A stretch of 64,000 nucleotides of DNA from the sequence record KM092515; one strand, 5' to 3'. The notes under the pieces are model-generated. The model saw nothing but the letters and a program-made list of their open reading frames with translations, was not told the origin of the DNA and did no database searches. Positions within the stretch are counted from its first letter, which is position 1. Each line of letters starts with the position of its first letter. Below are positions 5,996 through 63,839 of the stretch, piece after piece. Origin of the DNA: Escherichia phage HY02. Made by a program: the position numbers and the translations under genes.

Positions 5996-6553
5996 ATGAG
6001 ATACTTGAAGTATGCTTCATGGATTTTCTTAGCTTTGCTAGAACCATTGGCAGCAATCTTAGCAGTTATCTTAGCACCTTTTGTAGTTCCATTTTACAGT
6101 GAGAAGAAAGGACACTTACCTTTTGGATTCAGATGGATGGAGACATATGACAACCTGATTGATGGTGATGAAGGTCACGTTAAAAGATGGGCTAAGATTA
6201 GAAAGATTGGTAAGCTTGGTGTCTATTTGCAGAGAGTTGGATGGCTCTGGAGAAACAAAGCTTATAACTTCTCTTACCATGTGTTAGGAAGAGATGTAAA
6301 AGATGTTACTAAGTGGAAAGGTAATATCAACGTAAGTTCTGACCCTGAAGATAATCAGACAGGTTATCTCCTAATGTGGAACAGTAATGCTTGGGGATTA
6401 TTCGCTTTTATCCCATCAATTAAAGTCTTTGGTAAACAATTCTACTGGAGAATTTATGTTGGATGGAAGCTAAAAAGTGTTGTCCCAGAAGAAAGAGCAT
6501 TCTCAAGGGAAAGAGTTATGTTGGCATTCTTTATTCATCCACTGAGAAAGTAA
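5996..6553 (+). CDS. hypothetical membrane protein embedded in the tRNA array
   Basis: 185-aa ORF with AAAGAGG RBS; strongly hydrophobic N-terminus (ASWIFLALLEPLAAILAVILAPFVVPF) and Trp-rich body; tRNAs on both sides. Confidence 0.6.
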   Translation: MRYLKYASWIFLALLEPLAAILAVILAPFVVPFYSEKKGHLPFGFRWMETYDNLIDGDEGHVKRWAKIRKIGKLGVYLQRVGWLWRNKAYNFSYHVLGRDVKDVTKWKGNINVSSDPEDNQTGYLLMWNSNAWGLFAFIPSIKVFGKQFYWRIYVGWKLKSVVPEERAFSRERVMLAFFIHPLRK

Positions 6554-6561
6554 AGATTTAA

Positions 6562-6637
6562 AGGGGATTAGTTTACAAGGTTAAAACCTCGGTCTTTGAA
6601 ATCGAAGAAGTTGGTTCAATTCCAACATCCCCCGCCA
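6562..6637 (+). tRNA. tRNA-Gln (anticodon TTG)
   Basis: Acceptor AGGGGAT/ATCCCCC (A1-C72 mismatch), anticodon stem TCGGT/ATCGA with loop CTTTGAA, T-arm GTTGG-TTCAATT-CCAAC, encoded CCA. Confidence 0.7.
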
Positions 6638-6639
6638 AT

Positions 6640-6718
6640 GCTCCATTACTCCAATTGGCAGAGAGGCCAGACTTAAAATCTGTGTTATGTATCGGTTCGA
6701 ATCCGATATGGAGTACCA
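6640..6718 (+). tRNA. tRNA with anticodon TAA (Leu-type anticodon, short variable arm; isotype uncertain)
   Basis: Acceptor GCTCCAT/ATGGAGT, anticodon loop CTTAAAA with a 4-bp stem, T-arm ATCGG-TTCGAAT-CCGAT, encoded CCA; 79 nt. Confidence 0.55.
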
Positions 6719-6723
6719 AATTT

Positions 6724-6799
6724 AGCGGTATAGCATAACTGGCAATGCAGCAGTCTCTGAAGCTGTCTTATTAAGGTTCAAATCCTTATGCCGCTGCCA
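6724..6799 (+). tRNA. tRNA-Gln (anticodon CTG)
   Basis: Acceptor AGCGGTA/TGCCGCT, anticodon stem GCAGT/GCTGT with loop CTCTGAA, T-arm TAAGG-TTCAAAT-CCTTA, encoded CCA. Confidence 0.7.
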
Positions 6800-6833
6800 C
6801 TTCTAAGGATTCTTACGAGAGTCCTTAGAAGTG
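6800..6833 (+). repeat. second copy of the GGATTCTTACGAGAGTCC hairpin motif flanked by CTTCTAAGG/CCTTAGAAG
   Basis: Direct comparison with 3696-3730; sits between tRNA-Gln and tRNA-His. Confidence 0.5.
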
Positions 6834-6906
6834 GCCTTATCATAAATGGTAATGACCCATGCTGTGAACATGGTCTATACGGGTTCAAATCCCGTAGGTC
6901 ACCCCA
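6831..6906 (+). tRNA. tRNA-His (anticodon GTG)
   Basis: Acceptor GTGGCCT/AGGTCAC, D-arm TCAT-AAATGGTA-ATGA, anticodon stem CCATG/CATGG with loop CTGTGAA, discriminator C73, encoded CCA. Confidence 0.75.
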
Positions 6907-6911
6907 ATTTA

Positions 6912-6988
6912 TAGTCCAAGTAGCTTATATGGTTAAAGCGCGTGTCTGAAAAACATGAGAAGAGGGTTCAAATCCCACTGGACTACCA
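6912..6988 (+). tRNA. tRNA-Phe (anticodon GAA)
   Basis: Acceptor TAGTCCA/TGGACTA, anticodon stem CGTGT/ACATG with loop CTGAAAA, T-loop GGTTCAAATCC; CCA only partly encoded. Confidence 0.7.
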
Positions 6989-7004
6989 ATTTCAAAGGTG
7001 CTTA

Positions 7005-7739
7005 ATGAAAGAGATGACAGAACAAGGTAAGGAGATTTTTAATCTCTTAAAAACTGGTAAAGGGTTTTCTAACCCCCTTATTACTGGTGCAGCAGTTCTC
7101 GGTGGAACCGTAGCTGCCTCTACATCACTTGTAAGCTCTATTAGCTCTGTATCAGACCCTACAGTAAAGGATAAGCTTGTTGCTGCTGGACTTACAACAG
7201 TTCTGCTTAACAGCTTTACCACGAGTCTGACAAGCACTACATCAACTACCAAAACACTAACAGATTACGGTCAAAAGTCCATTGATGAGTTTTCATCACG
7301 TATGCAGGTAGCAAAAGGTTACTCTAATGTTATGGGTGCAGCAGGTGAACAAGTTGGCTGTACACCATTTAGTGGTATTATGGGTGTTGCTACAGAGTAT
7401 GGTCAAAAAGCTATTGATACGATTAACAGTGCACTAGATAGTGTTAATGGTGTGTTAAGTGACTTACAAGATGCTATTGACAAAGGTCTTGATACTATTT
7501 CTGATTTAGCTGAGCAAGCTGTTAGTAAGATTAATGAAGGTATTTCAAAAATTACAGCTTATGCAGATGAAGTTGTGCAGATGATTGAAGAAGAAGCTGC
7601 TCTTATTGCAGAGTACCTTAAAACGAATATCAATGGGTTCTTAGCAGGTATCTTACCAGACTGGTTTGATGATGCTTGTAAAACTGGTGTGATTGACACT
7701 ATTGCAACACCAGAAATGAAGAACGCATTACAGAAATAA
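7005..7739 (+). CDS. hypothetical protein with Ser/Thr-rich segment (start moved downstream of tRNA-Phe)
   Basis: ORF 6942..7739 overlaps tRNA-Phe; the in-frame ATG at 7005 has an AAAGGTG RBS right after the tRNA 3' end. Confidence 0.55.
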   Translation: MKEMTEQGKEIFNLLKTGKGFSNPLITGAAVLGGTVAASTSLVSSISSVSDPTVKDKLVAAGLTTVLLNSFTTSLTSTTSTTKTLTDYGQKSIDEFSSRMQVAKGYSNVMGAAGEQVGCTPFSGIMGVATEYGQKAIDTINSALDSVNGVLSDLQDAIDKGLDTISDLAEQAVSKINEGISKITAYADEVVQMIEEEAALIAEYLKTNINGFLAGILPDWFDDACKTGVIDTIATPEMKNALQK

Positions 7740-7740
7740 T

Positions 7741-7833
7741 GGAAGATTAACCCTAAAAGGTAAGGGAGCAGTTTGCTAAACTGCCAGTAGCTGAGAAATC
7801 GGTGTACCAGTTCAAGTCTGGTATCTTCCTCCA
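7741..7833 (+). tRNA. tRNA-Ser (anticodon GCT), type II
   Basis: 93 nt; perfect acceptor GGAAGAT/ATCTTCC, anticodon stem GCAGT/ACTGC with loop TTGCTAA, long variable arm, T-arm ACCAG-TTCAAGT-CTGGT, encoded CCA. Confidence 0.8.
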
Positions 7834-7837
7834 ATTT

Positions 7838-7913
7838 GAATCCGTGACAGAAATGGCTATGTGCCTGTCTGCAAAACAGGTTTATAAGGGTTCGAGTCCC
7901 TTCGGATTCTCCA
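7838..7913 (+). tRNA. tRNA-Cys (anticodon GCA)
   Basis: Perfect acceptor GAATCCG/CGGATTC, anticodon stem CCTGT/ACAGG with loop CTGCAAA, T-loop GGTTCGAGTCC, encoded CCA. Confidence 0.8.
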
Positions 7914-8135: not shown

Positions 8136-8336
8136 ATGAGCGAAAACATCTATAAAGAACTTTATGAAGCTAATAAGAAGCTAGAATTTATGCAGAACAC
8201 TATCATGGCAATTGCAGATAGATTGTCTGTAGCAACAGGTATTGATATCAAAGAAGCCTCTATGGATGCACTTCTTGATGCTGTTGATGCAAAGTTCGAA
8301 GTTAAGAAAGAAGAGACTGCTACAGACTCTGAATAA
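8136..8336 (+). CDS. hypothetical protein directly upstream of large terminase
   Basis: 66-aa ORF with RBS; too small to call a small terminase from sequence alone. Confidence 0.55.
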   Translation: MSENIYKELYEANKKLEFMQNTIMAIADRLSVATGIDIKEASMDALLDAVDAKFEVKKEETATDSE

Positions 8337-27636: not shown

Positions 27637-28812
27637 ATGGCAGTCGGTGAAATTCAAATTAGTGCCTTGCCACAAGCGACATTACCTGTTGATTTAAGTG
27701 ATATCTTCCATCTTAAGCAAGGTGTTGAGGATAAAAGATGTACGCTTGAACAGTTGTTAGCACCTCACGCATCTTTGAGGAATAATCCTCATGGTGTAAC
27801 CAAATCACAAGTGGGTCTTGATAATGTTATTAACTCTCTTCAATTAGTTGCAGCTAATAACTTGTCAGACATTGTGAATGTTGCTGAGGCAAGAGCAAAT
27901 CTACAAATTATGTCGTCAGAGGAAGTGAATAACTTAATTCAGCAACATATTGACGACAAAAGTAACCCACACAATACAACGAAAGCACAGGTCGGTTTAA
28001 GTAATGTTCAGAACTGGACAACATCTAATCTGTACAATGAAGATGCTGATAAGTACGCCACCGCGAGAGCAGTGAATAATTTATACAAAGCTATTCAAGC
28101 ATCATATCCAGTAGGGACTATTCATCTATCTGTTAACTCTGCCAACCCATCCACTTACTTGCTTTGTGGAGGTACTTGGGAGTTAGTTTCTAAAGGTAGA
28201 GCACTAGTTGGTTACGATACAGATTCTAGACCTGTTGGTTCAATGTTTGGTTCTCAGACTGTAGCATTAACGAATAATAATTTACCAGCACACACACACT
28301 CTATCTATCTAACAGGTGGTGGTCATACACACTCTGCAAGTGTATCTATCTCTAGTTTTGATTATGGTTCAAAGAGTACATCAACTTTTGACTACGGTAC
28401 AAAAACGACTAATAGTGCTGGTGCTCATACTCACACGTTTAGTGGTACAACAAGTAATGCTGGTAACCACAACCACAGAGTACCTATGAGGGGTAATGAT
28501 AGGGGTGGTACAAATGCTATTACTGCATCTGCTGATGCTGGTGCTGGTAATGCTATGTATACTGATTTAGCTGGTGCTCACACCCATAGCTTCTCAGGCA
28601 CAACTGCATCATCTGGTGCTCATAGCCATACTCTTGCAATTGGTGCTCACAGCCACACTGTTAATATTGGTTCACACAGTCATACGGGCACTGTTACTGT
28701 TTCTAGCTCTGAGCATACACACTCAGGGACATCTGGTTCTGTTGGTGGTGGTCAAGCTTTCAGTGTTGAGCAGCCATCTTTTGTAGTATATGTGTGGCAG
28801 AGAACAGCTTAA
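27637..28812 (+). CDS. tail fibre protein with C-terminal His-X-His repeat region
   Basis: 391 aa; repeated AHTHSF / GAHSHT / GSHSHT motifs and a C-terminus (GGGQAFSVEQPSFVVYVWQRTA) shared with the next gene. Confidence 0.65.
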   Translation: MAVGEIQISALPQATLPVDLSDIFHLKQGVEDKRCTLEQLLAPHASLRNNPHGVTKSQVGLDNVINSLQLVAANNLSDIVNVAEARANLQIMSSEEVNNLIQQHIDDKSNPHNTTKAQVGLSNVQNWTTSNLYNEDADKYATARAVNNLYKAIQASYPVGTIHLSVNSANPSTYLLCGGTWELVSKGRALVGYDTDSRPVGSMFGSQTVALTNNNLPAHTHSIYLTGGGHTHSASVSISSFDYGSKSTSTFDYGTKTTNSAGAHTHTFSGTTSNAGNHNHRVPMRGNDRGGTNAITASADAGAGNAMYTDLAGAHTHSFSGTTASSGAHSHTLAIGAHSHTVNIGSHSHTGTVTVSSSEHTHSGTSGSVGGGQAFSVEQPSFVVYVWQRTA

Positions 28813-28822
28813 TTTCTTTACA

Positions 28823-28842
28823 GGGGCTTTGTAGCCCCTTTT
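28823..28842 (+). terminator. rho-independent terminator between the two tail-fibre genes
   Basis: GGGGCT-TTGT-AGCCCC hairpin followed by TTTT. Confidence 0.6.
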
Positions 28843-28858
28843 AAGAGGAAAATTTATA

Positions 28859-31402
28859 ATGGCAGATTACAAATTGAGTCAATTAAACTCAATCGACACA
28901 ATTCGTTCAGAAGACCTATTGCACATCAGAGTTAAGAAAAGACCTGAAATGCTGGGTGATGAAGACCGTAGAATGACCTATCAAGACTTCTTAGCTTCCT
29001 TCAAACTAGAAAGGTTTGTTCAGATTGCTGGGAGTACTATGACGGGAGACTTAGGTATTGTCAAGTTACTTTACGGTGGCAAGGCTGTATTTGACCCTAC
29101 AGGCTCTTCTGAGATTACTATTGGGGATATTTTAAAGACTTTTAAAATTAACTCAAATGGTCTTAAACTCACTATTGCAGATGCCACAAGGTCGGCAACT
29201 GTTTATCATACTTTGAATAAACCAAGTCCTAATGAACTTGGCATGAGAACTAATGAAGAGAATGATGCAAGATATGCAAGGCTTGCTGTTACAAATAACT
29301 TCAGTATTAGGCAAGCAATTATAACTGATGGTGAGCAGTTAACTCTTAAGAAGGCAACCAATGCAGGTGCTTCATATATTCAAGGTAGAGATGCTAATAA
29401 CCAGCAAACTTGGTATGTTGGACAGGGAAATGCAAACAGTACTAATGTTTATTTGTACAATCATGCTACTGGTGCAATGTTGACCCTTGATGCAACAGCA
29501 GCATTTAACAAGTCACTTAGAATCACTGGTCAAGTTCAACCTTCGGATTTCTCTAACTTAGATGCTAGGTACTTCACTCAGACAGTCGCTAATCAGAGAT
29601 TTGCACAGTTAGCTGCTAATAATAATTTTACTGGAACAAACACGTTTAGTAGAAACCTACTTATCATCAGTGACAGTGCTGCTTTAAGGTTGAAAAATGC
29701 AACAGCTAGCTCACTATTCATTCAGGGTGTTGACTCCCAGAATACTAACAGGTGGTATGTAGGAAACGGGGATAACACAGCCTCTGTGCTGCTACACAAC
29801 TATGTACACGGCTCAAATATCAGGCTTGATAATGGTTATATCTCAGTCAACCAGAACTTCAGAATCACTGGTCAAGTTCAACCTTCAGATTGGGCTAACA
29901 TTGACTCTAGATATATTCCAGCAGCTACTTTGAATAATCTTGCTAAGATTAATGCTAAGAATACTTTTTCTCAAGGTCAGATTATTAAGGTTGACGGAGA
30001 GGTTATTAGACTTCAGGGGGTAAATGATACTGGTGGTTTGTTCTTGCAAGGTTATACTTCTGATGGTACTAAGAAGTGGTTTATGGGTACTAATGCTTCA
30101 GGCAACTTTACTATCAGGGAGATGGTGTTAGGTACTGAACTGTCTCTTAGAGAGAACTATATCCAGTTCAATAAGAATGTAACAATTAATGGGCAGGTTC
30201 AACCACAAGATTGGGCTAACATTGATGGGAGATACTACAACAAATCATCTGCTGATAGTAGATATCTGAGGGTAAGAAGCACTAACTTTAACACTAGTAA
30301 TGTGGAGAAATGGGCTAAGATTGCAACTGTTACTATGCGGCAGGCAACATCGACAGCGGTAATTGAGTTGTTTGGTGGGTCTGGGTTCAACTATGGTGCA
30401 TATAACCAAGCATGTAAAACAGAGATTGTTATTAGAGCAGGGAATAATAGTCCAAAAGGCTTAAATGTTGTTGCATGGAAAAACTCACCGAATGGTGTTG
30501 TGATGGAAATTGGGCATGTTAATACATCTGGTGATAATTATGACATCTACTTAAAAGCTGGTCCCTACCAAAATGCTACGACAGCTAGGGTTCAGTCATC
30601 ATCTAATGCAACAGTGCAGTTGTTTGAGACTCCAGAGACATCTGACAGTGCTCCATCTGGCTATGTTGCTGGGACAATTGCTTATTATTATACTAGTCTC
30701 TTGAAACCAACCCCTTCAGATATTGGTGCATACACTAAAGCAGAGACTGACCAGAAGATTGCAGATGCAATTAGTGACTCTACAGACCTGAATAAAATCT
30801 ATCCAGTAGGTATTGTGACGTGGTTTAACAGTAATGTCAACCCAAACACAGCACTTCCTGGGTTAACTTGGACGTACCTGAATAATGGTGTTGGTAGAAC
30901 TATTAGAATTGCAGCAGCAAACGGTTCAGATGTTGCTACAACTGGTGGTTCAGACTCTGTAACGTTGTCTGTTGGTAACTTACCTTCACACACGCACAGC
31001 TTCTCTGCTACTACTTCATCATTTGACTATGGTACTAAGACTTCTAGCACAACTGGTAACCACAACCACAACAGAGGTACTATGGAGATTACTGGTTCAT
31101 TTGGTTACTTCAGAAGTGACGCTAGTAGCTTCTACACAGCAAGTGGTGCATTCTACCTCGGTAGTCAGGCAGGTTCTAAAGGGTATACTGGTAACAACTT
31201 TACTAATGGTATCCCTGTCAACTTCAACGCATCAAGAAACTGGTCTGGTGTAACGAATACAACAGGTAACCACAGCCACACTGTTGGTATTGGTGCTCAC
31301 AGCCACACAGTTAGCGGTAACACAGGTGGTACTGGTTCTGGTTCAGCATTTAGTGTTACTAACCAGTTCTATAAGTTAATGGCTTGGGTAAGAACTGCTT
31401 AA
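28859..31402 (+). CDS. long tail fibre protein with internal triplicated module and C-terminal His-X-His region
   Basis: 847 aa; three copies of an ITGQVQPSD(W/F)(A/S)N(I/L)D(A/S/G)RY module; C-terminus with SHTHSF, GNHNHN, GNHSHTVGIGAHSHTV and tail AFSVTNQFYKLMAWVRTA. Confidence 0.7.
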   Translation: MADYKLSQLNSIDTIRSEDLLHIRVKKRPEMLGDEDRRMTYQDFLASFKLERFVQIAGSTMTGDLGIVKLLYGGKAVFDPTGSSEITIGDILKTFKINSNGLKLTIADATRSATVYHTLNKPSPNELGMRTNEENDARYARLAVTNNFSIRQAIITDGEQLTLKKATNAGASYIQGRDANNQQTWYVGQGNANSTNVYLYNHATGAMLTLDATAAFNKSLRITGQVQPSDFSNLDARYFTQTVANQRFAQLAANNNFTGTNTFSRNLLIISDSAALRLKNATASSLFIQGVDSQNTNRWYVGNGDNTASVLLHNYVHGSNIRLDNGYISVNQNFRITGQVQPSDWANIDSRYIPAATLNNLAKINAKNTFSQGQIIKVDGEVIRLQGVNDTGGLFLQGYTSDGTKKWFMGTNASGNFTIREMVLGTELSLRENYIQFNKNVTINGQVQPQDWANIDGRYYNKSSADSRYLRVRSTNFNTSNVEKWAKIATVTMRQATSTAVIELFGGSGFNYGAYNQACKTEIVIRAGNNSPKGLNVVAWKNSPNGVVMEIGHVNTSGDNYDIYLKAGPYQNATTARVQSSSNATVQLFETPETSDSAPSGYVAGTIAYYYTSLLKPTPSDIGAYTKAETDQKIADAISDSTDLNKIYPVGIVTWFNSNVNPNTALPGLTWTYLNNGVGRTIRIAAANGSDVATTGGSDSVTLSVGNLPSHTHSFSATTSSFDYGTKTSSTTGNHNHNRGTMEITGSFGYFRSDASSFYTASGAFYLGSQAGSKGYTGNNFTNGIPVNFNASRNWSGVTNTTGNHSHTVGIGAHSHTVSGNTGGTGSGSAFSVTNQFYKLMAWVRTA

Positions 31403-35788: not shown

Positions 35789-35804
35789 AGCCTCCGAAGA
35801 GGCT
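35776..35804 (-). terminator. rho-independent terminator (minus strand)
   Basis: AGCCTC-CGAA-GAGGCT hairpin; on the minus strand it is followed by a TTTTT run. Confidence 0.5.
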
Positions 35805-35815
35805 ACCTAGTCAAC

Positions 35816-36256
35816 TTAGAAAGGTTTTCTACGTTGCTTGTTAATGTTAGCTTTCATAGCAGCTAAATGGTTTTGCTGTTCAATCAGTCGTGAACGTTCT
35901 TGATGACTAAGTGCCATAGTGTTCACATTCTCAATCGCTTGAGTGGCTTGCTTTAAAGCACGACCAATCTTACCAGACATTTTACGTTTTGCAATAGTTG
36001 CTTGATGCTTAGGTTCAACCACACGATAACCAACACCCATTGAAGCAACCAGATAAATCTTCTCTTCTTTAAGAAGCTTTTCAATAAACTTCTCAAGTCG
36101 GTTTAGACGTGTAAGTGCATAAGCCTTCATTTCATCTTCGTACTTAACAATGTCACCTTGATAAGTTGGCTTCACAATACCTAAGAAGGTATCCATCTCA
36201 GAGTGTGATACAGTGTCACCGTAACTAAACTTTGCTGCTAATGCTTTTGTATTCAT
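35816..36256 (-). CDS. hypothetical protein
   Basis: 146-aa ORF. Confidence 0.55.
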   Translation of the reverse strand: MNTKALAAKFSYGDTVSHSEMDTFLGIVKPTYQGDIVKYEDEMKAYALTRLNRLEKFIEKLLKEEKIYLVASMGVGYRVVEPKHQATIAKRKMSGKIGRALKQATQAIENVNTMALSHQERSRLIEQQNHLAAMKANINKQRRKPF

Positions 36257-36258
36257 AA

Positions 36259-36864
<606 letters not shown>

Positions 36865-36922
36865 TTAGTTGATTGTTAAGTTGTTTGTAAAGAACCCTCA
36901 ACAGAAGACTCTTTAGAAACTT

Positions 36923-37046
36923 GGTAGATTTTTAACGTGGCTACTACCATCCACCCATGCTTTACCGTACCTGACAGTACAACACTTCAACTTACCCAAC
37001 CACACCTTACCTTATTAAAAGACCCTCTTAAAGACCTTTTAGAAAG
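36923..37046 (-). repeat. intergenic repeat copy 2
   Basis: Shares GGTAGATTTTT...GGCTACTACCATCC...CCTTACCTTATTAAAAGACCCTCTTAAAGACCTTTTA with copy 1; partial third copy near 37140-37180. Confidence 0.6.
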
Positions 37047-37240
37047 GTAAGTCTCATTTTAATGTAGCTGAGACTAACTACCCACACCAAACCATAGCAT
37101 ACATCGCATTACCGGACAGAGCCATACTTTACCAGACATCACTTAAAAACCCTCTTAGAAGACTCTTAAGTGATGCTGGTGAGTACCCGTCGGTTTATGC
37201 TGCTCAGTATACTCACCAAATTTTCTATGTCAACAACTTT

Positions 37241-38341
37241 TTATTCGTAATCTCGAATAACTAACCCAACAGGGAACTGTAAAGAACCCTTACGAGTCAT
37301 CTTCTGGAACTGAACCGTTAAAGGCTTCCCGATAAACTCTTCAGGATGCTCAGCAAGATACTGTTTCTTCTCGTGTGTAGTTTTCCATGAGACATCTACA
37401 AAGACGTTAGGAAGAGTCTCTACAACGAACTTGCCATGACCACGTTTATCGGTCTTTACACCAGTCACTTTAAACTCTTCAGTGTGCATCTTCTTGTGCT
37501 TAATCAAGAAGTATGAACGGTGACAACACTCATAGAAGGAGTCTTCAGAGATTGAACGGTACATTGCACCTTCAAACTTAGCTTCAACCCACTTATCATG
37601 AGCTTCATCGAATTCTTCCCAAGAATTTACACGACGAGACTTAACAGGAACAACTTTACAGCCGTCTCTAAAGTCATTCAATGGTGAAGTCTCAATAATA
37701 TCTCTACGCTCAGGCCACGTCTTAGTGCTGTCACAGATATCGTACCAGTAGAACTGGAGTAGATGTCGGTCTGGATTGTCAGCATTCTTAATCATAGACA
37801 CAATATCTTCTAAGTCCCAACCATGAGCATAAATCTCACCATCAAAGTCTTCGACTTGTGGATGTAATTTAAGCAACAAAAGCAAATCTGGGATTAGTTC
37901 TGCTGGGACGTTGTAAACAGTATTCTCACGAGAATAAGCCGTGAAACTAACTGAATCAGCGTCTCTTGAAATTCTACAACGAACTCCATCAAGTTTTGGT
38001 TGAGCATCAGCAGGGAACTTCAGATACTTTGCATGACTAACCTTTGCAGCATCATGAGCAAGCTGTACACCTACCTTCTCAGTATTCTGTGCAGACTCTT
38101 TTGTGTAAGCATAACCTTTGCGGTCAACTTGCTTTTTATACTTTGCAGCAACTTCAAAGAGAGCTTGCTGTTCAGCGTTACGCTCATTCTTTTTACCGAT
38201 GTTCTTAGGCTCTGCTGTATACTCTTCAAACATCATCTTGCCATTTTCTTTGCCATACGTGGTAACAACTTTGTCACCTACAGCAACACATGACCAGACG
38301 TTAAAAGAGCCATCTTTATTTTGTTTGTACAGTGTTGTCAT
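37241..38341 (-). CDS. ATP-dependent DNA ligase
   Basis: Adenylation motif I KLDGVR (KxDG) in PKLDGVRCRI; 366 aa. Confidence 0.75.
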   Translation of the reverse strand: MTTLYKQNKDGSFNVWSCVAVGDKVVTTYGKENGKMMFEEYTAEPKNIGKKNERNAEQQALFEVAAKYKKQVDRKGYAYTKESAQNTEKVGVQLAHDAAKVSHAKYLKFPADAQPKLDGVRCRISRDADSVSFTAYSRENTVYNVPAELIPDLLLLLKLHPQVEDFDGEIYAHGWDLEDIVSMIKNADNPDRHLLQFYWYDICDSTKTWPERRDIIETSPLNDFRDGCKVVPVKSRRVNSWEEFDEAHDKWVEAKFEGAMYRSISEDSFYECCHRSYFLIKHKKMHTEEFKVTGVKTDKRGHGKFVVETLPNVFVDVSWKTTHEKKQYLAEHPEEFIGKPLTVQFQKMTRKGSLQFPVGLVIRDYE

Positions 38342-38544
38342 TTTCTCTTACCACCAATTTCTACGTCGATAACCTGAACATCACCAGCAACATCAAACTT
38401 ATGAATGATGCTTTCCACAGTGTAAGTACAACCATCAATGCGAACCAACTCACCTTCTCGTGGGATGATGGGATTACGTTGAGCTACGGTTGTAGTGGAG
38501 TGAACAACATCATAACAGTAGATATAGTTTACTAGGACTTCCAT
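38338..38544 (-). CDS. hypothetical small protein
   Basis: 68-aa ORF overlapping the ligase start. Confidence 0.45.
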   Translation of the reverse strand: MEVLVNYIYCYDVVHSTTTVAQRNPIIPREGELVRIDGCTYTVESIIHKFDVAGDVQVIDVEIGGKRK

Positions 38545-38553
38545 ATCTTTTCC

Positions 38554-38772
38554 TTAAAATGATAAGTTAATGCTAATACGTTCACCCTTAAGGACTCCTG
38601 TACGGTCTCTTGCAATCTTACCGTCAACGATAATGATATGCGCAAACTTTAAAGACTCACTATTAAAACCTTTTACGAACTTACTAGGCATTACCACAAT
38701 ACACATCTCCTGAATCAACTCTGGAGTATAGCAATTGTCGTGAAGTTGCTGAATAACGTCTGAAAGTTTCAT
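38554..38772 (-). CDS. hypothetical small protein
   Basis: 72-aa ORF. Confidence 0.45.
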   Translation of the reverse strand: MKLSDVIQQLHDNCYTPELIQEMCIVVMPSKFVKGFNSESLKFAHIIIVDGKIARDRTGVLKGERISINLSF

Positions 38773-48986: not shown

Positions 48987-49455
48987 AGAATACCTGCACT
49001 ATGACCCCGAAACAGGGGTCTTTACTTGGATTAAGAAGTCTGCTAGACACACAAAAATTGGCTCTGTTGCAGGTACAAACTTAAGAGGGTACACCAGAAT
49101 TTATTTGTTTGGTAAGGGCTATTATGCACATACCCTAGCTGTTCTGTATATGGATGGATACCTACCTGAGTGTGTTGACCATAAAAATCATGTAACACTA
49201 GACAATCGCTGGGTAAATCTTAGGGCATGTACGTTATCAGAGAACCAATGTAATAGGTTGCTCAATAAGAACAATAAATCAGGTGTTAAGGGTGTGTACT
49301 ACAAAAAACAGTATGGTAAGTGGTCTACACAGATAACTTTTAAGAAGAGGGTCTACTTCTTCGGCAACTATGACACTATTGATGAAGCAGCAGAGGTTGT
49401 AAATAGGGAACGTCAACGTTTACACAAAGAGTTTGCTAATAAAGGTGATGAATGA
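48940..49455 (+). CDS. HNH homing endonuclease with AP2 domain (second copy)
   Basis: Shares the YDPETGVFTW N-terminus and HNH core (HTLAVLYMDGYLPECVDHKNHVTLDNRWVNLR) plus AP2-like segment (SGVKGVYYKKQYGKWSTQITFKKRVYFFGNYDTIDEAAEV) with 38824-39357; start may be the internal Met. Confidence 0.75.
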   Translation: MKSMVGLRMLTQQTLKEYLHYDPETGVFTWIKKSARHTKIGSVAGTNLRGYTRIYLFGKGYYAHTLAVLYMDGYLPECVDHKNHVTLDNRWVNLRACTLSENQCNRLLNKNNKSGVKGVYYKKQYGKWSTQITFKKRVYFFGNYDTIDEAAEVVNRERQRLHKEFANKGDE

Positions 49456-49952
49456 GAAAAATAAAAGGTTTTGGCAATTGCCCTGAATATGGACATTGGG
49501 TTTCACTATGTGGTGAAGTTGACCCAGCAAAGCACTTTGGTTTTGTCTACCTAGTGTACTGCAAAAAGACTGGACAGTACTATTTGGGTAAGAAACAGCT
49601 TAATAGTGTGACTAAAAGAAAAGTTGCTGGGGAGACTCGGAAGAAGGTAGTTACTAAGGAGAGTGATTGGATGACTTACGAAACCTCTTCTGAGTATATT
49701 AAAAAAGATATTGAAAGCTTTGGAAAAGAATTTTTTGACTTTTACATTATCCAAACCTACTACACGAAAGGTGGCCTAGTTTATGGTGAAGCAAACCTCC
49801 AACATAAATTCGATGTAATGACAAAAAGGATTGACTCTAAGCTCAGACTCTTCTACAATGCCAACATTGCAGCAATTAAGTTTATCACTAAAGAAACTTA
49901 TGAAGATGCTGAAAAAAGAATCCATAAGGTAATGAAAGCAAATTGTGCTTGA
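49452..49952 (+). CDS. putative GIY-YIG family endonuclease
   Basis: GFVYLVYCKKTGQYYLGKK matches the GIY...YIG spacing; directly after an HNH endonuclease gene. Confidence 0.5.
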   Translation: MRKIKGFGNCPEYGHWVSLCGEVDPAKHFGFVYLVYCKKTGQYYLGKKQLNSVTKRKVAGETRKKVVTKESDWMTYETSSEYIKKDIESFGKEFFDFYIIQTYYTKGGLVYGEANLQHKFDVMTKRIDSKLRLFYNANIAAIKFITKETYEDAEKRIHKVMKANCA

Positions 49953-59779: not shown

Positions 59780-59905
59780 TCATGAGCAAAGTTTATAACA
59801 CTGATAACTTTGTAAAAGTTACTGGAAAAGCAAAAGAGCTTATGGATGAGAGTGAGATTTCATTCACAAGCCTCTTGAAAGTAGCTCAGTAAACAGATAC
59901 TATAG

Positions 59906-59930
59906 GGGAACTGTAAAGGTTCCCTTTTTA
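59906..59930 (+). terminator. rho-independent terminator
   Basis: GGGAAC-TGTAAAG-GTTCCC hairpin followed by TTTTT. Confidence 0.7.
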
Positions 59931-59943
59931 TTTTGGAGGTAAA

Positions 59944-60459
59944 ATGTATCTGTCAAATCTGAAACGTTCGGTTGCAATGTCAGTTCTAAGACTCAGCTTT
60001 GATGAGCGTCAAGAATTTATAGACTCCCACAAATATAACCCTTCAAATTCTAATCACATGGTTCTTTGGAATCGTGATAACTTCCGTGAAAGAGCACTTG
60101 TCCGTTATTACCCACACTACACAATAGATAACCTGTATGAATGGTGTGTTGTGAAGAACACCATTGCAACACTGAACAATCTTTGCAGGTATACGGGTAA
60201 GCAAACATTTACACTAGGCCACCACAAACCTGTTACAAAAGGTGGTGAACATCACTGTGCGAACTGGTTTATCCAAACTAAAGCTGATAACCAGAAGCAA
60301 GGAGATAGCCTCCTAAGTATTCCTAAGATGACCTATGAAGAGCAAGAGAGGTATATCAAAAATAATATGCCAGATGTGCTTGACAACAACTATACAGATT
60401 TGGCAATATCTCTCCTGTTGAAGTTCGAGACAGTTTATAGGGCAACTTATAATGGCTAA
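59944..60459 (+). CDS. putative HNH-family nuclease
   Basis: GHHKPVTKGGEHHCANWFIQTKADNQKQGD resembles an HNH core; 171 aa. Confidence 0.45.
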   Translation: MYLSNLKRSVAMSVLRLSFDERQEFIDSHKYNPSNSNHMVLWNRDNFRERALVRYYPHYTIDNLYEWCVVKNTIATLNNLCRYTGKQTFTLGHHKPVTKGGEHHCANWFIQTKADNQKQGDSLLSIPKMTYEEQERYIKNNMPDVLDNNYTDLAISLLLKFETVYRATYNG

Positions 60460-60730
60460 AGAAAAGTGGGAGATTTTACCATTAGTCAGTGAAGGAGGTA
60501 ATGGTTGTGAAATGTACATGATACGTGGTCATGTTCCAGAGCCAATTGCACTTGAGATGGTAAACAACTTTACAGATGGTTCTTACAAAGACTTAGGCGA
60601 ACCAACTGTCAAGCAACAATGGGTTAAACCTGTACCAGACAGCACAGGTAACTGTAGTGTACTTTATCACGTTGTAGACCCTGCAAAATGCAAATCTGCA
60701 ATGGCAGTAACAAACGTAACTTTTGATTGA
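60452..60730 (+). CDS. hypothetical protein
   Basis: 92-aa ORF. Confidence 0.45.
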   Translation: MAKEKWEILPLVSEGGNGCEMYMIRGHVPEPIALEMVNNFTDGSYKDLGEPTVKQQWVKPVPDSTGNCSVLYHVVDPAKCKSAMAVTNVTFD

Positions 60731-60741
60731 GAGAGAAAACT

Positions 60742-61623
60742 ATGAAAACATCTATCCGTGTTACAGTTCATTCACCAACTAAAGGAACTCATGAAGAAGA
60801 GTTTAACATCATCCAATTTCCTTCTGGTGAGATTGGTGGACACTTTTCGCCAGAGTTTGTTGATTTCACTGCTTATGCAGCATCATCCATCAACAATGTG
60901 GTTATGATTGTAAAAGGTTATGATAAGGATACATTGTTTGCTGTGGCACTTGCTAAAGAAGCAATTGATGATTTAATTCCTCATGATTATGCTTTAAAGA
61001 CTGTCATCTTTTACTACTTACCAAATGCACGTTATGACCGTCACATGTTTAAAGGTGACGCAGCAGCTTTAAAGGTTTTTGCTAAACAAATTAATGCAAT
61101 GGGGTTTGGCGCAGTCTGTGCAGTTGACCCTCACAGCTATGTACCAGATAATCTGTTTAACTGCTTCCAGAGTATTCCTCAAAAGGAAATTGCAGTCCAC
61201 TATGCAAATGACCCACTGATTGATTACTTAGTAGCCCCAGATGCAGGTGCTGCTAAGAAGATTGCAGAGACTGCTAAAGAGGTGGATAAACCATACATCA
61301 CAATGTCTAAAGTGCGTAACCTTAAGACTGGTGAAATTACTGGTATGCGAATCCTTGATGATGTTGATTTGACAGATAAAACCGTCATGATTCTGGATGA
61401 TATCTGTGATGGTGGTCGAACCTTCATAGAAGCAGCGAAACATCTTCGTGAAGCAGGTGCAAAACGTGTGGAACTTTATGTAACACATGGTATCTTCTCT
61501 AAAGATGTTGAAAACCTTCTTGACAATGGTATCGACCATATTTACACTACAAACTCTTTAGGCGAAGCTAAAGACCGTGGCTTAACACATTACAGTCAAG
61601 TTACTGTAGCAAACCTTGATTGA
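60742..61623 (+). CDS. ribose-phosphate pyrophosphokinase family protein (PRPP synthetase-like; candidate ADPR-pyrophosphate synthetase of a NARP1-type module)
   Basis: PRTase-type binding loop VMILDDICDGGRTF and overall Prs-like length; start moved to the ATG with a GAGAGAG RBS; directly upstream of the NAMPT-family gene. Confidence 0.7.
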   Translation: MKTSIRVTVHSPTKGTHEEEFNIIQFPSGEIGGHFSPEFVDFTAYAASSINNVVMIVKGYDKDTLFAVALAKEAIDDLIPHDYALKTVIFYYLPNARYDRHMFKGDAAALKVFAKQINAMGFGAVCAVDPHSYVPDNLFNCFQSIPQKEIAVHYANDPLIDYLVAPDAGAAKKIAETAKEVDKPYITMSKVRNLKTGEITGMRILDDVDLTDKTVMILDDICDGGRTFIEAAKHLREAGAKRVELYVTHGIFSKDVENLLDNGIDHIYTTNSLGEAKDRGLTHYSQVTVANLD

Positions 61624-61632
61624 AAGTTTATA

Positions 61633-61653
61633 GGGGCTTAAAAGCCCCATTTT
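61633..61653 (+). terminator. rho-independent terminator or attenuating hairpin
   Basis: GGGGCT-TAAA-AGCCCC hairpin followed by ATTTT. Confidence 0.55.
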
Positions 61654-61668
61654 GAGAGAGATTAAAAG

Positions 61669-63450
61669 ATGACTAAATCACTTTATGCAGTACCAGCAGG
61701 TTTAAACGCAGATGCTTACAAATCTGGTCATGTTTACCAGTATCCTAGTGCAACAGAATACTTGATGTTCAACCTGACACCACGTAGTGACAAATGGTTT
61801 AACAGCCCTTTGGCAATTGACGGTGTAGTAGCTTTTGGTATTCAACGTTTCGTTAAAGATTACTTGATAGACCACTGGAATGCCACCTTCTTTGAACGTG
61901 ACAAAAAAGAAGCAATTGACGAAATCTTAGAAGTCATGAACGGTGTTCTGGGCAAAGATGCTATCGGTCGAGAGCATTGGGAAGCACTTCACGACTTAGG
62001 TTATCTACCAGTTGAAGTATACGCTGTAGAAGAAGGTACAGTTGTCCCTATGCGTGTCCCAATGATTGTCTTCCAGAACACTGTTTCAGGTTTCCATTGG
62101 GTAGCGGGGTATCTGGAAGATGCTTTCTCTGCTGAGATTTGGAAGGCTTGTACCATTGCAACTATTGCATTGCATTATAAACGCATCTGTAAGAAGTGGG
62201 CTGACCTTACTTGCGACAATGACTTACATTTACCTTATCAGTGCCATGACTTTGCTATGCGTGGTATGTCCGGCTTTACCGATGACGCATTTAATGCTGT
62301 AGGTCACTTAACCAGCTTTAAAGGAACTGATAGTTTCCCTGCTGTATACACGGCTAAACGCATCTATGGACAGTCTTACCCAATTTCTGATATTGGTAGT
62401 TCTGTACCAGCCACTGAGCACTCTGTAATGTGTGCAAACATTGCTTGGGAAGGTGGTAATGAGTTGATTGAAGAAGAAAGACGCTTTAAAGGTGAGTTAC
62501 AAACCTTCCGTCGTTTCTTAACAGAAACTTACCCAACTGGTATTGCAAGTGTTGTTTCAGACACTTATAACTTCTGGAGAACTGTGTCAGAAATTTTACC
62601 AGCACTTCGTAAAGAAATTATGGAACGTGATGGCAAACTGGTAATTCGTCCTGACTCTGGAGACCCTGTACATATTGTCACAGGTTATAAAGCAATCCAC
62701 TTAGAATGTGCTAAGAAGGCTTATTACGAGCACCTAAGCAATCTGGAAGCCAGTGACACAATGTTGAATGCTGTTCTGAACATGAAGCTTGAAAACATCA
62801 ACTATGGTATTGCTGGATGGCTACTGTCAGAAGGCTACGAAATGGTTGTTGACAGAGAAGACTTTGAAGTTGCTGATACAGTGATGTTGAAAAATGCTTA
62901 TATGGTTGGTTCTGCAAACGTTGTAACACGTCCTGTAGCTGAGATTGATGGAGCTATTAAGACACTGTACAACATTTTTGGGGGAACTATTAACTCTAAA
63001 GGGTTTAAGGTACTGGATGAGCATATCGGACTTATCTATGGTGACTCTATCACGCTGGAACGTGCAAACGAAATCCTGAAGCGTCTGTATGAAATGGGTT
63101 TTGCAAGCTCTAACGTAGTGTTTGGTGTAGGCTCTTACACTTACCAGTACATGACTCGTGACACCTTTGCATTTGCTGTCAAAGCAACTCTTGCAAGCAT
63201 TGGTGGTAAAGAGATTATGCTTGCAAAAGACCCTAAAACAGATAGTGGTATTAAGAAGTCTGCTTTTGGTGGTGTAGCCCCTATGTGGGATGGTGAGAAT
63301 CTGAAAGCTGTAGATGGCTATGGATTCCAGAGTTTTGCAGATGCACTTGAGCATCCAGCTTGTGCTTTACGTTTAGTCTTTAGCGACTCCGAGCAGTTCG
63401 GCTACACAACTCTTGGCGATATTCGAAATAATATTGACAAGCATCTTTAA
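61669..63450 (+). CDS. nicotinamide phosphoribosyltransferase family protein (NAMPT/NadV-like; candidate Namat of a NARP1-type module)
   Basis: 593 aa with segments typical of the NAMPT family; family recalled from memory, not searched. Confidence 0.7.
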   Translation: MTKSLYAVPAGLNADAYKSGHVYQYPSATEYLMFNLTPRSDKWFNSPLAIDGVVAFGIQRFVKDYLIDHWNATFFERDKKEAIDEILEVMNGVLGKDAIGREHWEALHDLGYLPVEVYAVEEGTVVPMRVPMIVFQNTVSGFHWVAGYLEDAFSAEIWKACTIATIALHYKRICKKWADLTCDNDLHLPYQCHDFAMRGMSGFTDDAFNAVGHLTSFKGTDSFPAVYTAKRIYGQSYPISDIGSSVPATEHSVMCANIAWEGGNELIEEERRFKGELQTFRRFLTETYPTGIASVVSDTYNFWRTVSEILPALRKEIMERDGKLVIRPDSGDPVHIVTGYKAIHLECAKKAYYEHLSNLEASDTMLNAVLNMKLENINYGIAGWLLSEGYEMVVDREDFEVADTVMLKNAYMVGSANVVTRPVAEIDGAIKTLYNIFGGTINSKGFKVLDEHIGLIYGDSITLERANEILKRLYEMGFASSNVVFGVGSYTYQYMTRDTFAFAVKATLASIGGKEIMLAKDPKTDSGIKKSAFGGVAPMWDGENLKAVDGYGFQSFADALEHPACALRLVFSDSEQFGYTTLGDIRNNIDKHL

Positions 63451-63464
63451 AAGTATATGATAAT

Positions 63465-63487
63465 AGGCTCCTACGGGAGCCTTTTTA
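63465..63487 (+). terminator. rho-independent terminator
   Basis: AGGCTCC-TACG-GGAGCCT hairpin followed by TTTTT. Confidence 0.7.
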
Positions 63488-63503
63488 ATTTCTGGAGAAA
63501 ATT

Positions 63504-63839
63504 ATGAAAATCAAAGAGATGAACATCAACATTGTCTTAGAAGAGCGTTGGGAGAACATCAAGAAGCCTGAAAATGGTCATAAGTTCCTCAACAAAATCT
63601 TAGTAGCAGCTAAAGAAGAACTGACTGGGAAGATTGCAGCAGCAATCACAATAAAGGTGTGTGTAAAAGGTCTTCCAGACAATCACCAATTTGCACTTGA
63701 CGAGTTTAAAGAAAGCTTCTACAATCCAAACAAACAGATGCTTGAAAGTAACTTTGCAGTATCTACAAGTATCGTCCATGACAGAAGCTTTATCCTTTAC
63801 AAAAACATGAGAGGTGAGTCATGCAAGCATATTGGGTAG
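63504..63839 (+). CDS. hypothetical protein
   Basis: 111-aa ORF with GGAGAAA RBS. Confidence 0.5.
   Translation: MKIKEMNINIVLEERWENIKKPENGHKFLNKILVAAKEELTGKIAAAITIKVCVKGLPDNHQFALDEFKESFYNPNKQMLESNFAVSTSIVHDRSFILYKNMRGESCKHIG

Follow-up and report, generated by a model that had tools for sequence, protein, structure and literature searches.

The question raised by this locus is whether two adjoining phage genes, one of the Prs family and one of the NAMPT family, form a classical NAD+ salvage pair or a NARP1-type pathway that rebuilds NAD+ during infection. The genes lie in a stretch of 64,000 nucleotides of Escherichia phage HY02 (record KM092515; hereafter, the window), which covers ~74% of the phage genome, with ~23 kb outside it. 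The phage is a FelixO1/wV8-like Escherichia phage (Felixounavirus) collinear with Bas63 (JohannRWettstein, MZ501086), to which 60,826 of the 64,000 nt align at about 90 to 98% identity. ORF calls place both genes on the plus strand with a 45-nt spacer between them: adps (positions 60742 to 61623), coding for a putative Prs-family ADP-ribose pyrophosphate synthetase of 293 aa and assigned by its ORF, its Pfam and PHROG matches, and its identity to Bas63_0079, and namat (61669 to 63450), coding for a putative NAMPT-family nicotinamide ADP-ribose transferase of 593 aa and assigned by its ORF, its identity to Bas63_0080, structure matches, and an AF2 model. Both gene lengths and the spacer are equal to those of Bas63_0079/0080, and the position of the locus is common to both genomes, downstream of nrdD/nrdG and gp77/gp78 and upstream of the rII genes. 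The initial annotation had described a Prs-family gene followed by a 593-aa NAMPT-family gene, and the ORFs, the position of the PRT loop, and Pfam and PHROG scores far beyond chance all agree with it.

The start of adps is the ATG at position 60742, which agrees with the Bas63 annotation and is preceded at 5 to 6 nt by a GAGAGAG ribosome-binding site; an alternative TTG start at 60727 would give a protein of 298 aa. The product carries the flag motif NARYDRH at aa 95 to 101, the PRT loop VMILDDICDGGRTF at aa 215 to 228, and the catalytic-loop lysine Lys190, which aligns with K162 of SpbetaL1 Adps and with the loop lysine of the Sulfolobus solfataricus Prs. Mutation of K162, the equivalent of K197 in the Bacillus subtilis Prs, kills the activity of SpbetaL1 Adps. 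Adps matches the Pfam families Pribosyltran (1.2e-11) and Pribosyl_synth (4.4e-10) and PHROG 619, "ribose-phosphate pyrophosphokinase" (1.9e-97), and the Pfam search gave no match to Pribosyltran_N. It fails the cut-offs of all NCBIfam Prs equivalog models (best score, 104.7 bits; cut-off, 296) and passes that of the broad TIGR01251 subfamily (124.9 versus 113) only over aa 87 to 292. The phmmer scores fall from 513 bits for Bas63 through 188 for an Erwinia phage, 155 for a Klebsiella chromosomal protein, 117 for Vibrio phage Pontus, and 89 for SpbetaL1 to 49 for the Escherichia coli Prs, and identities are 78% to Bas63_0079 (ungapped), 32% to SpbetaL1 Adps, and 25% to E. coli Prs. A neighbor-joining tree of this small comparison set likewise joins Adps to the NARP1-linked Prs-like proteins and not to E. 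coli Prs. In the Adps clade, 97% of members have a Namat homolog directly adjoining adps on the same strand.

The identity to Bas63 is unevenly spread along Adps. Among the 65 differences, 59 fall in aa 1 to 180 (39 of them in aa 1 to 95), with about 67% identity over these N-terminal ~180 aa, and the C-terminal catalytic part (aa 181 to 293) has 6 differences and is 95% identical. Synonymous sites in the 5' half of adps are saturated (pS 0.78 to 0.80), compared with a dS of only 0.17 for namat, while pN in the divergent part stays well below pS. Two allele groups of Adps coexist among Felixounavirus-like records. Judged from these comparisons, the first ~180 aa of the window Adps is a different, anciently diverged allele; the saturated synonymous sites together with the low pN point to an old adps allele acquired via recombination. 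Such a low pN relative to pS gives no indication of positive selection on the N terminus; this and the synonymous saturation ruled out positive selection as the source of its divergence.

Namat is much closer to its Bas63 counterpart, being 98% identical to Bas63_0080 without gaps, and all 12 differences lie outside the mapped residues. It matches NAPRTase (5.8e-35) and NAMPT_N in Pfam and PHROG 448, "nicotinamide phosphoribosyl transferase" (8.4e-202), and scores above the cut-off of the NF006629 equivalog model (468.9 versus 405). Both by sequence and by fold, its best PDB matches are the crystal structures of SpbetaL1 Namat, 9W5W/9W5X, with a TM score of 0.95, and it scores 430 bits against SpbetaL1 Namat and 141 bits against human NAMPT. 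Its AF2 model has a mean pLDDT of 94.5. The catalytic core is conserved (D15, Y17, F195, R198, D221, A248, H251, R327, D329, and G458-D459), and the equivalent of Arg306 is present within this intact Nampt-like core. The catalytic His251 belongs to the PATEHS segment (62407 to 62424, plus strand), which is invariant across the aligned Namat and Nampt proteins.

The residues expected to tell Namat from Nampt are found in two elements, both located by residue mapping on the plus strand. The selectivity-clamp loop (SCL; aa 37 to 51, 61777 to 61821) reads TPRSDKWFNSPLAID, the same sequence as in Bas63, with Lys42 in the third position and Trp43 predicted to stack adenine. According to the published rule, the SCL has Arg in the third position, or Lys or Tyr there with the fourth residue stacking adenine, and the K42/W43 form has been described for Bas63 (PMC12774641). 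The selectivity-clamp helix (SCH) motif GSYTYQYMTRD (aa 488 to 498, 63130 to 63162) is the published Namat signature, with the aromatic residues Y490 and Y494 at the two adenine-stacking positions. In the controls, the equivalent segment reads GGGLLQ..RD in the phiAS5 and PMBT1 Nampts and GAQTYQRNTRD in the NadV of Haemophilus ducreyi.

In Namat, an inserted alpha/beta subdomain of ~88 aa (aa 340 to 427; 62686 to 62949, plus strand) separates the RPDSGDP strand from the core helix that follows. Neither SpbetaL1 Namat nor the Nampts have this insert, which differs from the Bas63 version at 3 positions (about 97% identity) and is modeled with confidence as a fold for which no relative was found in the PDB. 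The site after the RPDSGDP strand is an insertion hotspot, with unrelated versions in many Gram-negative phage Namats. The insert might gate the active-site entrance, capture labile ADPR-PP from Adps, or evade a host inhibitor. There is a small chance that it adds a function absent from the SpbetaL1 enzyme and that the swapped N-terminal allele of Adps is likewise an adaptation to a host factor, which may be one that targets Adps. The 5' half of adps, this subdomain, and the upstream gp77 homolog are minor points that apparently have no mention in the NARP1 literature.

A terminator-like hairpin with a T-run (63465 to 63482, plus strand; -13.8 kcal/mol), 15 nt past the namat stop and kept in Bas63, is likely the 3' end of the transcription unit. 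Between adps and namat, the hairpin GGGGCTTAAAAGCCCC followed by ATTTT (61633 to 61653, plus strand) folds at -12.6 kcal/mol; its stem is kept in Bas63, with change in the loop only, and weak attenuation or RNA stabilization are conceivable roles. Upstream and outside NARP1 proper, an ORF of 171 aa (59944 to 60459, plus strand) is 88% identical to bas63_0077 and 50% identical to the equivalent gene 5' of adps in an Erwinia Kolesnikvirus, and has a weak HNH-like PHROG match. Its Bas63 homolog, gp77, is reported to counter retron Ec67 (PhageMaP). Another terminator-like hairpin lies 5' of this ORF (59904 to 59926), which is possibly cotranscribed with adps and namat. A second context ORF, of 92 aa (60452 to 60730, plus strand; phrog_4726), is homologous to bas63_0078, ends with its stop codon 11 nt 5' of the adps start, and has no match in Pfam or NCBIfam. 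It was considered and rejected as a conserved NARP1 partner, as the Kolesnikvirus gene in the same position has no detectable homology to it.

A classical salvage pair calls for an NMNAT, and the initial annotation had counted the absence of any such gene downstream in the window against the pairing of NAMPT with NMNAT. The ORF list and the Pfam scans agree with this absence, downstream of the pair and elsewhere in the window: PF01467 (NMNAT) and PF00293 (Nudix) gave no match in the window ORFs scanned, i.e., the nonstructural ones of at least 90 aa. Extending the search beyond the window by way of Bas63 gave the same outcome, with no match to either family among ORFs of 90 aa or more in the region not covered by the window. 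A six-frame search of the window and of the Bas63 genome likewise turned up no NMNAT or Nudix sequence motif. The phiAS5 "nucleotidyltransferase" is RlaP-like and hence provides no NMNAT positive control. Extended forms of NARP1 were considered as well. The 45-nt spacer contains no ORF and the four flanking ORFs gave no match to a Macro domain, by which a NARP1-AP extension in or beside the operon is ruled out; the one Macro-domain gene among the ORFs scanned in the window and the rest of the Bas63 genome is the unlinked bas63_0095, which lies ~8 kb downstream in Bas63, outside the region equivalent to the window. In the same way, the lack of a match to the RyR domain (PF02026) in the flanking ORFs or the other ORFs scanned, those of the rest of Bas63 included, rules out a RyDEP-associated NARP1, which has an RyR glycosidase within the locus.

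Taken together, the orthology to Bas63, the signature residues of Namat and Adps, and the lack of an NMNAT in the scanned ORFs support reading the pair as NARP1, and we consider it almost certain that adps-namat is a minimal two-gene NARP1 module of a Felixounavirus. The proposal of a NARP1-type Adps plus Namat in the initial annotation is thus sustained by the orthology to Bas63 genes 79 and 80, the synteny, and the sequence features tested. In the predicted pathway, a host defense (for example, Sir2-HerA, type I Thoeris, DSR1/2, or SEFIR) would cleave NAD+ into ADP-ribose and nicotinamide, Adps would move pyrophosphate from ATP onto the 1'' position of ADP-ribose to give ADPR-PP, and Namat would swap the pyrophosphate of ADPR-PP for nicotinamide, restoring NAD+ in one step without NMN or NMNAT. 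What we show here, at the sequence level, is orthology to the characterized Bas63 pair and the retention of all mapped residues and motifs with a published function. The activity and the anti-defense effect have been shown elsewhere, the chemistry with the SpbetaL1 enzymes and the phenotype with the Bas63 orthologs, and we infer that the window Adps allele, 78% identical to that of Bas63, would behave as its orthologs do.

Several other readings have to be weighed against NARP1. The pair could be a booster of classical salvage, with the Prs homolog making PRPP, the NAMPT homolog making NMN, and host NadR or PncC finishing NAD+. In Pfam, PHROG, and NCBIfam alike, the proteins go by the names Prs and NAMPT/NAPRT, with NF006629 and the broad TIGR01251 passed, and Namat still makes some NMN from PRPP in vitro (about half of the PRPP-dependent activity of human Nampt in the case of SpbetaL1 Namat), so some classical Nampt activity could persist. 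However, Nampts and HdNadV lack the adenine-stacking clamp found in the window Namat, Adps fails every Prs equivalog and has no Pribosyltran_N match, and in vitro assays of homologs show that Adps forms no PRPP and that Namat strongly prefers ADPR-PP. We therefore rejected classical Prs plus Nampt salvage, a very improbable reading, on the clamp, the failed equivalogs, and the result for the Bas63 ortholog in a host with pncC and nadR deleted. Even closer to zero is the probability of a NARP2-type system, in which a true Nampt would work with an NMNAT that the phage encodes at another site. A Nampt clade paired with Nmnat accounts for about 20% of phage Namat homologs (bioRxiv 10.1101/2024.02.11.579819), and the window is only part of the genome, but the protein shows the aromatic motif of Namat and not that of the Nampt type and adjoins Adps, and neither a CTP_transf_like or NUDIX Pfam match nor a corresponding motif (by regular expressions) was found in the scanned window or the whole Bas63 genome, which effectively refutes it.

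A functionally shifted NARP1, in which the divergent Adps N terminus, the Namat insert, or both alter substrate range or regulation, is unlikely, although it deserves more weight than these two. The synonymous saturation in adps beside the low dS of namat, the two allele groups, and a well-folded orphan insert directly after an active-site strand would all fit it. Against it stand the low pN in the divergent part, the near identity of the catalytic half of Adps to that of Bas63, and the fact that Bas63 Namat has the same kind of insert and performs canonical NARP1 in vivo.

NARP1 is an important recent discovery, in which phages rebuild a metabolite destroyed by host immunity. If the pair acts as NARP1, the phage should resist NAD+ depletion of the Sir2-HerA, Thoeris I, DSR, and SEFIR types and, by published logic, not that of the aRES type. 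The assignment also has value for annotation, as the two genes still appear in public records as "ribose-phosphate pyrophosphokinase" and "nicotinamide/nicotinate phosphoribosyltransferase", and NCBIfam lacks models for Adps and Namat.

Compared with known systems, the pair shares its folds with cellular Prs and bacterial NadV (H. ducreyi, 9KE8), as well as the transfer of pyrophosphate to ribose C1 and its displacement by nicotinamide, but HdNadV has Gln and Arg where Namat has its two adenine-stacking tyrosines, and housekeeping (class I) Prs differ in the equivalog and Pribosyltran_N matches that Adps lacks. NARP2 (Nampt plus bifunctional Nmnat, KVP40 type) has a homologous NAMPT fold and also restores NAD+ during infection, but its Nampts carry GGGLLQ..RD, adjoin no Adps, and need Nmnat, none of which is a trait of the window. 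NARP1-AP, known from Vibrio phage Gary (Adps, the Macro-domain phosphatase Adpp, and Namat; bioRxiv 10.64898/2026.01.28.702374) and with its three-gene layout also seen in Vibrio phage Pontus, has the same Adps plus Namat core, whereas no gene lies between adps and namat in the window; two-gene NARP1 should, by the published logic, not counter aRES-type defenses, which make ADPR-1''-phosphate. The NARP1 of the Bacillus phage SPbetaL1 (WIT26982, Adps; WIT26983, Namat; PMC12774641) agrees in gene order and in catalytic and clamp residues (SCH, GSFTYQYNTRD versus GSYTYQYMTRD), although identity to the window proteins is only 32% for Adps and 47% for Namat. SpbetaL1 Namat, of 491 aa, lacks the ~88-aa insert and another of ~15 aa near aa 258 to 278, and in its SCL adenine is stacked by Arg40 instead of Lys42/Trp43. 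The in vitro chemistry (ADPR plus ATP to ADPR-PP, then with nicotinamide to NAD+) comes from these enzymes, with SpbetaL1 Adps as the purified synthetase.

The system was discovered in genes 79 and 80 of Bas63, where deletion of the pair gave sensitivity to SIR2-HerA, ADPR-PP was detected only with wild-type phage plus defense, and the effect did not depend on the host genes pncC and nadR (Osterman et al., bioRxiv 10.1101/2024.02.11.579819). Independently, PhageMaP found that deletion of g79 or g80 causes a 10^4- to 10^6-fold plating loss on Sir2-HerA. The window differs from Bas63 in the allele of the first ~180 aa of Adps and in lacking bas63_0081, a 345-nt gene directly 3' of namat, and is alike in Namat, including SCL, SCH, and the ~88-aa insert, and in the intergenic hairpin and the terminator. 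NARP1 was discovered and independently revalidated in this very system and phage genus, and since the locus is of this already published type, it is a known system and not a new candidate.

The Prs-family gene followed by a NAMPT-family gene that the initial annotation read at 60742-63450 was recovered by ORF calling as two plus-strand ORFs at the same coordinates, adps (60742-61623; 293 aa, with an ATG start) and namat (61669-63450; 593 aa). The ATG at 60742 has a ribosome-binding site, GAGAGAG, 5 to 6 nt upstream; an alternative TTG start at 60727 would add five codons, and the stop codon of the upstream ORF lies at 60728-60730. The family assignments are borne out by Pfam and PHROG, as Adps matches Pribosyltran, Pribosyl_synth, and PHROG 619, "ribose-phosphate pyrophosphokinase" (1.9e-97), and Namat matches NAPRTase, NAMPT_N, and PHROG 448, "nicotinamide phosphoribosyl transferase" (8.4e-202). 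The phosphoribosyltransferase loop quoted in that annotation, VMILDDICDGGRTF, is located at aa 215 to 228 of Adps. Its interpretation of the pair as NAD+ reconstitution pathway 1 (NARP1), in which Adps makes ADPR-pyrophosphate (ADPR-PP) from ADPR and Namat joins it to nicotinamide, proved correct, given the orthology with Escherichia phage JohannRWettstein (Bas63; MZ501086), the clamp motifs of Namat, and the tests on Adps. Judged from sequence, adps-namat is almost certainly a NARP1 locus.

A selectivity clamp, described in SpbetaL1 Namat (structures 9W5W and 9W5X), sets Namat apart from Nampt, and one of its elements is a variable loop giving a further stacking residue, which in Bas63 comes directly after a Lys (PMC12774641). 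Namat of the window carries GSYTYQYMTRD at aa 488 to 498 and K42/W43 in the clamp loop, and all of the mapped catalytic-core residues are kept (D15, Y17, F195, R198, D221, A248, H251, R327, D329, and G458-D459). As negative controls, the Nampts of phages phiAS5 and PMBT1, which lack Adps, show GGGLLQ..RD, and H. ducreyi NadV (9KE8), an NMN-forming enzyme, shows GAQTYQRNTRD, in which Gln and Arg occupy the two stacking positions. The Namat-type motif is present in 120 of the 120 best database homologs. The closest PDB sequences are the SpbetaL1 Namat structures (430 bits; human NAMPT scores 141), and these are also the best matches to the fold predicted by AF2 (mean pLDDT, 94.5; TM of 0.95 on the target). 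The RPDSGDP strand is followed by an inserted alpha/beta subdomain of ~88 aa (aa 340 to 427; 62686-62949, plus strand), which is confidently modeled and for which a PDB fold search found no relative. Phage Namats carry at least two unrelated families of inserts at this hotspot, and the term "insertion" is absent from the Namat structure paper (PMC12774641).

The initial annotation had also raised the placement of the first protein relative to Prs, and within a small comparison set it falls on the Adps side, clustering with Prs-like proteins that adjoin a Namat (89 to 513 bits) and not with E. coli Prs (49 bits). It fails all the NCBIfam Prs equivalog models (top score of 104.7 bits, with a cutoff of 296), the sole Prs-type NCBIfam model passed being the broad subfamily TIGR01251, over aa 87 to 292 only, and it has no Pfam match to Pribosyltran_N. 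Its K190 aligns to K162 of SpbetaL1 Adps, a residue whose mutation inactivates that enzyme (bioRxiv 10.1101/2024.02.11.579819).

Two other routes, classical salvage and NARP2 (Nampt with a phage Nmnat), would involve an NMNAT, which the initial annotation had not seen downstream in the window. Pfam scans of ORFs of at least 90 aa, covering those outside the structural module in the window and those in the part of Bas63 beyond it, gave no match to CTP_transf_like, NUDIX, or RyR, and NMNAT and Nudix signature motifs were absent from all six frames of the window and of Bas63. As neither NMNAT nor Nudix was found by either approach, both routes are unsupported.

Two terminator-like hairpins (59904-59926 and 63465-63482) enclose four same-strand ORFs, coding for 171 aa, 92 aa, Adps, and Namat. 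The 171-aa ORF (59944-60459, plus strand) shares 88% identity with bas63_0077 and 50% with its positional equivalent in an Erwinia Kolesnikvirus; for the 92-aa ORF, no relative was detectable at the corresponding Kolesnikvirus position. Bas63 gp77 is reported by PhageMaP to counter retron Ec67 and is described there as GIY-YIG, a domain call discrepant with the only match obtained here, a weak HNH-like PHROG; the clear GIY-YIG protein of the window is another gene (49452-49952). The 171-aa gene may be co-transcribed with NARP1, in which case the locus would be a small anti-defense cluster. The adps-namat spacer holds a GC-rich hairpin with a short T-run (61633-61653), whose stem is kept in Bas63, the sole change in the hairpin falling in the loop. 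The window lacks bas63_0081 (345 nt), which directly follows namat in Bas63 (window 63450-63504).

The 5' ~60% of adps (60742-61280) is a mosaic allele with respect to Bas63, the first ~450 nt having 58 to 75% DNA identity against a genome background of 92 to 98%. Synonymous sites are saturated in codons 1 to 120 (pS, 0.78 to 0.80), dS is 0.40 in codons 181 to 293 and 0.17 in namat, and pN is well below pS. This combination points to an old allele, swapped in by recombination, and not to recent positive selection on the divergent part. About 150 phage records carry a window-type adps (at least 90% identity) and another 94, Bas63 among them, lie in the 60 to 80% band, so the window allele is the commoner one, while the experimentally tested allele is that of Bas63. 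The mosaicism does not appear in the cited NARP1 papers.

A 3.5-kb region matched 254 phage records at 90 to 97% identity, nearly all of them FelixO1/wV8-like phages of Escherichia, Salmonella, Shigella, and Citrobacter; over 25 kb, the closest record is only ~95% identical to the window, which therefore belongs to a Felixounavirus differing from every record in the collection compared. The window is collinear with Bas63 (60,826 of 64,000 nt aligned at ~90 to 98% identity), position 1 of Bas63 corresponding to window position 8136. Three stretches align poorly or not at all: 28400-31300, with distal tail-fiber genes (70 to 85% identity or unaligned) that likely reflect a host-range difference; 35790-37240, with two ORFs without Pfam matches; and 38340-38770, bordering an HNH-AP2 homing-endonuclease ORF that adjoins the DNA polymerase gene. 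The nrdD gene (~56932) is uninterrupted (714 aa), whereas in Bas63 it is split by an insertion bearing a homing endonuclease. An array of 25 tRNA genes (3089-7913) is typical of Felixounaviruses.

Outside phages, a chromosomal contig of Klebsiella michiganensis (positions 3211-6491) codes for an Adps-like protein (289 aa) and a Namat-like protein (496 aa) with the motif GSFTYQYNTRD. The pair adjoins a divergently transcribed Nudix + WHD_NrtR regulator, with core genes on either side, and resembles a chromosomal NARP1-like operon that may be controlled by an NrtR-type regulator. Relatives of the 496-aa protein occur widely in Klebsiella, Cronobacter, Kosakonia, and Phytobacter.

Extended NARP1 loci are known: the NARP1-AP operon holds a Macro-domain ADPR-1''-phosphatase (Adpp) and counters aRES, and another form contains a RyR-domain glycosidase, RyDEP. 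Vibrio phage Pontus has the three-gene NARP1-AP-type layout, with the Macro-domain gene between adps and namat. In the window only 45 nt separate the two genes, and none of the four flanking ORFs shows a Pfam domain, which makes the locus a minimal, two-gene NARP1. About 8 kb downstream, beyond the window, bas63_0095 ("putative phosphatase"; Bas63 63278-64063) has a Macro domain (PF01661; 32.3 bits) and could be an unlinked candidate ADPR-1''-phosphatase serving NARP1; it is distantly related to the Pontus gene (27% identity; E, 1e-5), the Macro proteins of T4-like phages being closer.

NARP1 was discovered in genes 79 and 80 of Bas63, and without both genes the phage is SIR2-HerA sensitive and NAD+ recovery is abolished; host pncC and nadR are dispensable for the effect, ADPR-PP was seen only for wild-type Bas63 with the defense system, and the purified SpbetaL1 homologs convert ADPR and ATP to ADPR-PP, and ADPR-PP and nicotinamide to NAD+ (Osterman et al., bioRxiv 10.1101/2024.02.11.579819). 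Independently, a second group found that deletion of g79 or g80 lowers plating 10^4- to 10^6-fold on Sir2-HerA cells; the effects seen with retron Ec86 and hhe were weaker. As an ortholog of this experimentally characterized type example, the locus is already known and of low discovery interest. Adps and Namat of the window are equal in length to Bas63_0079 and Bas63_0080 and align to them ungapped (78 and 98% identity, respectively), and both phages share the terminator 3' of namat and a 45-nt spacer with a conserved hairpin; beyond resemblance, the pair is orthologous to the type system of NARP1.
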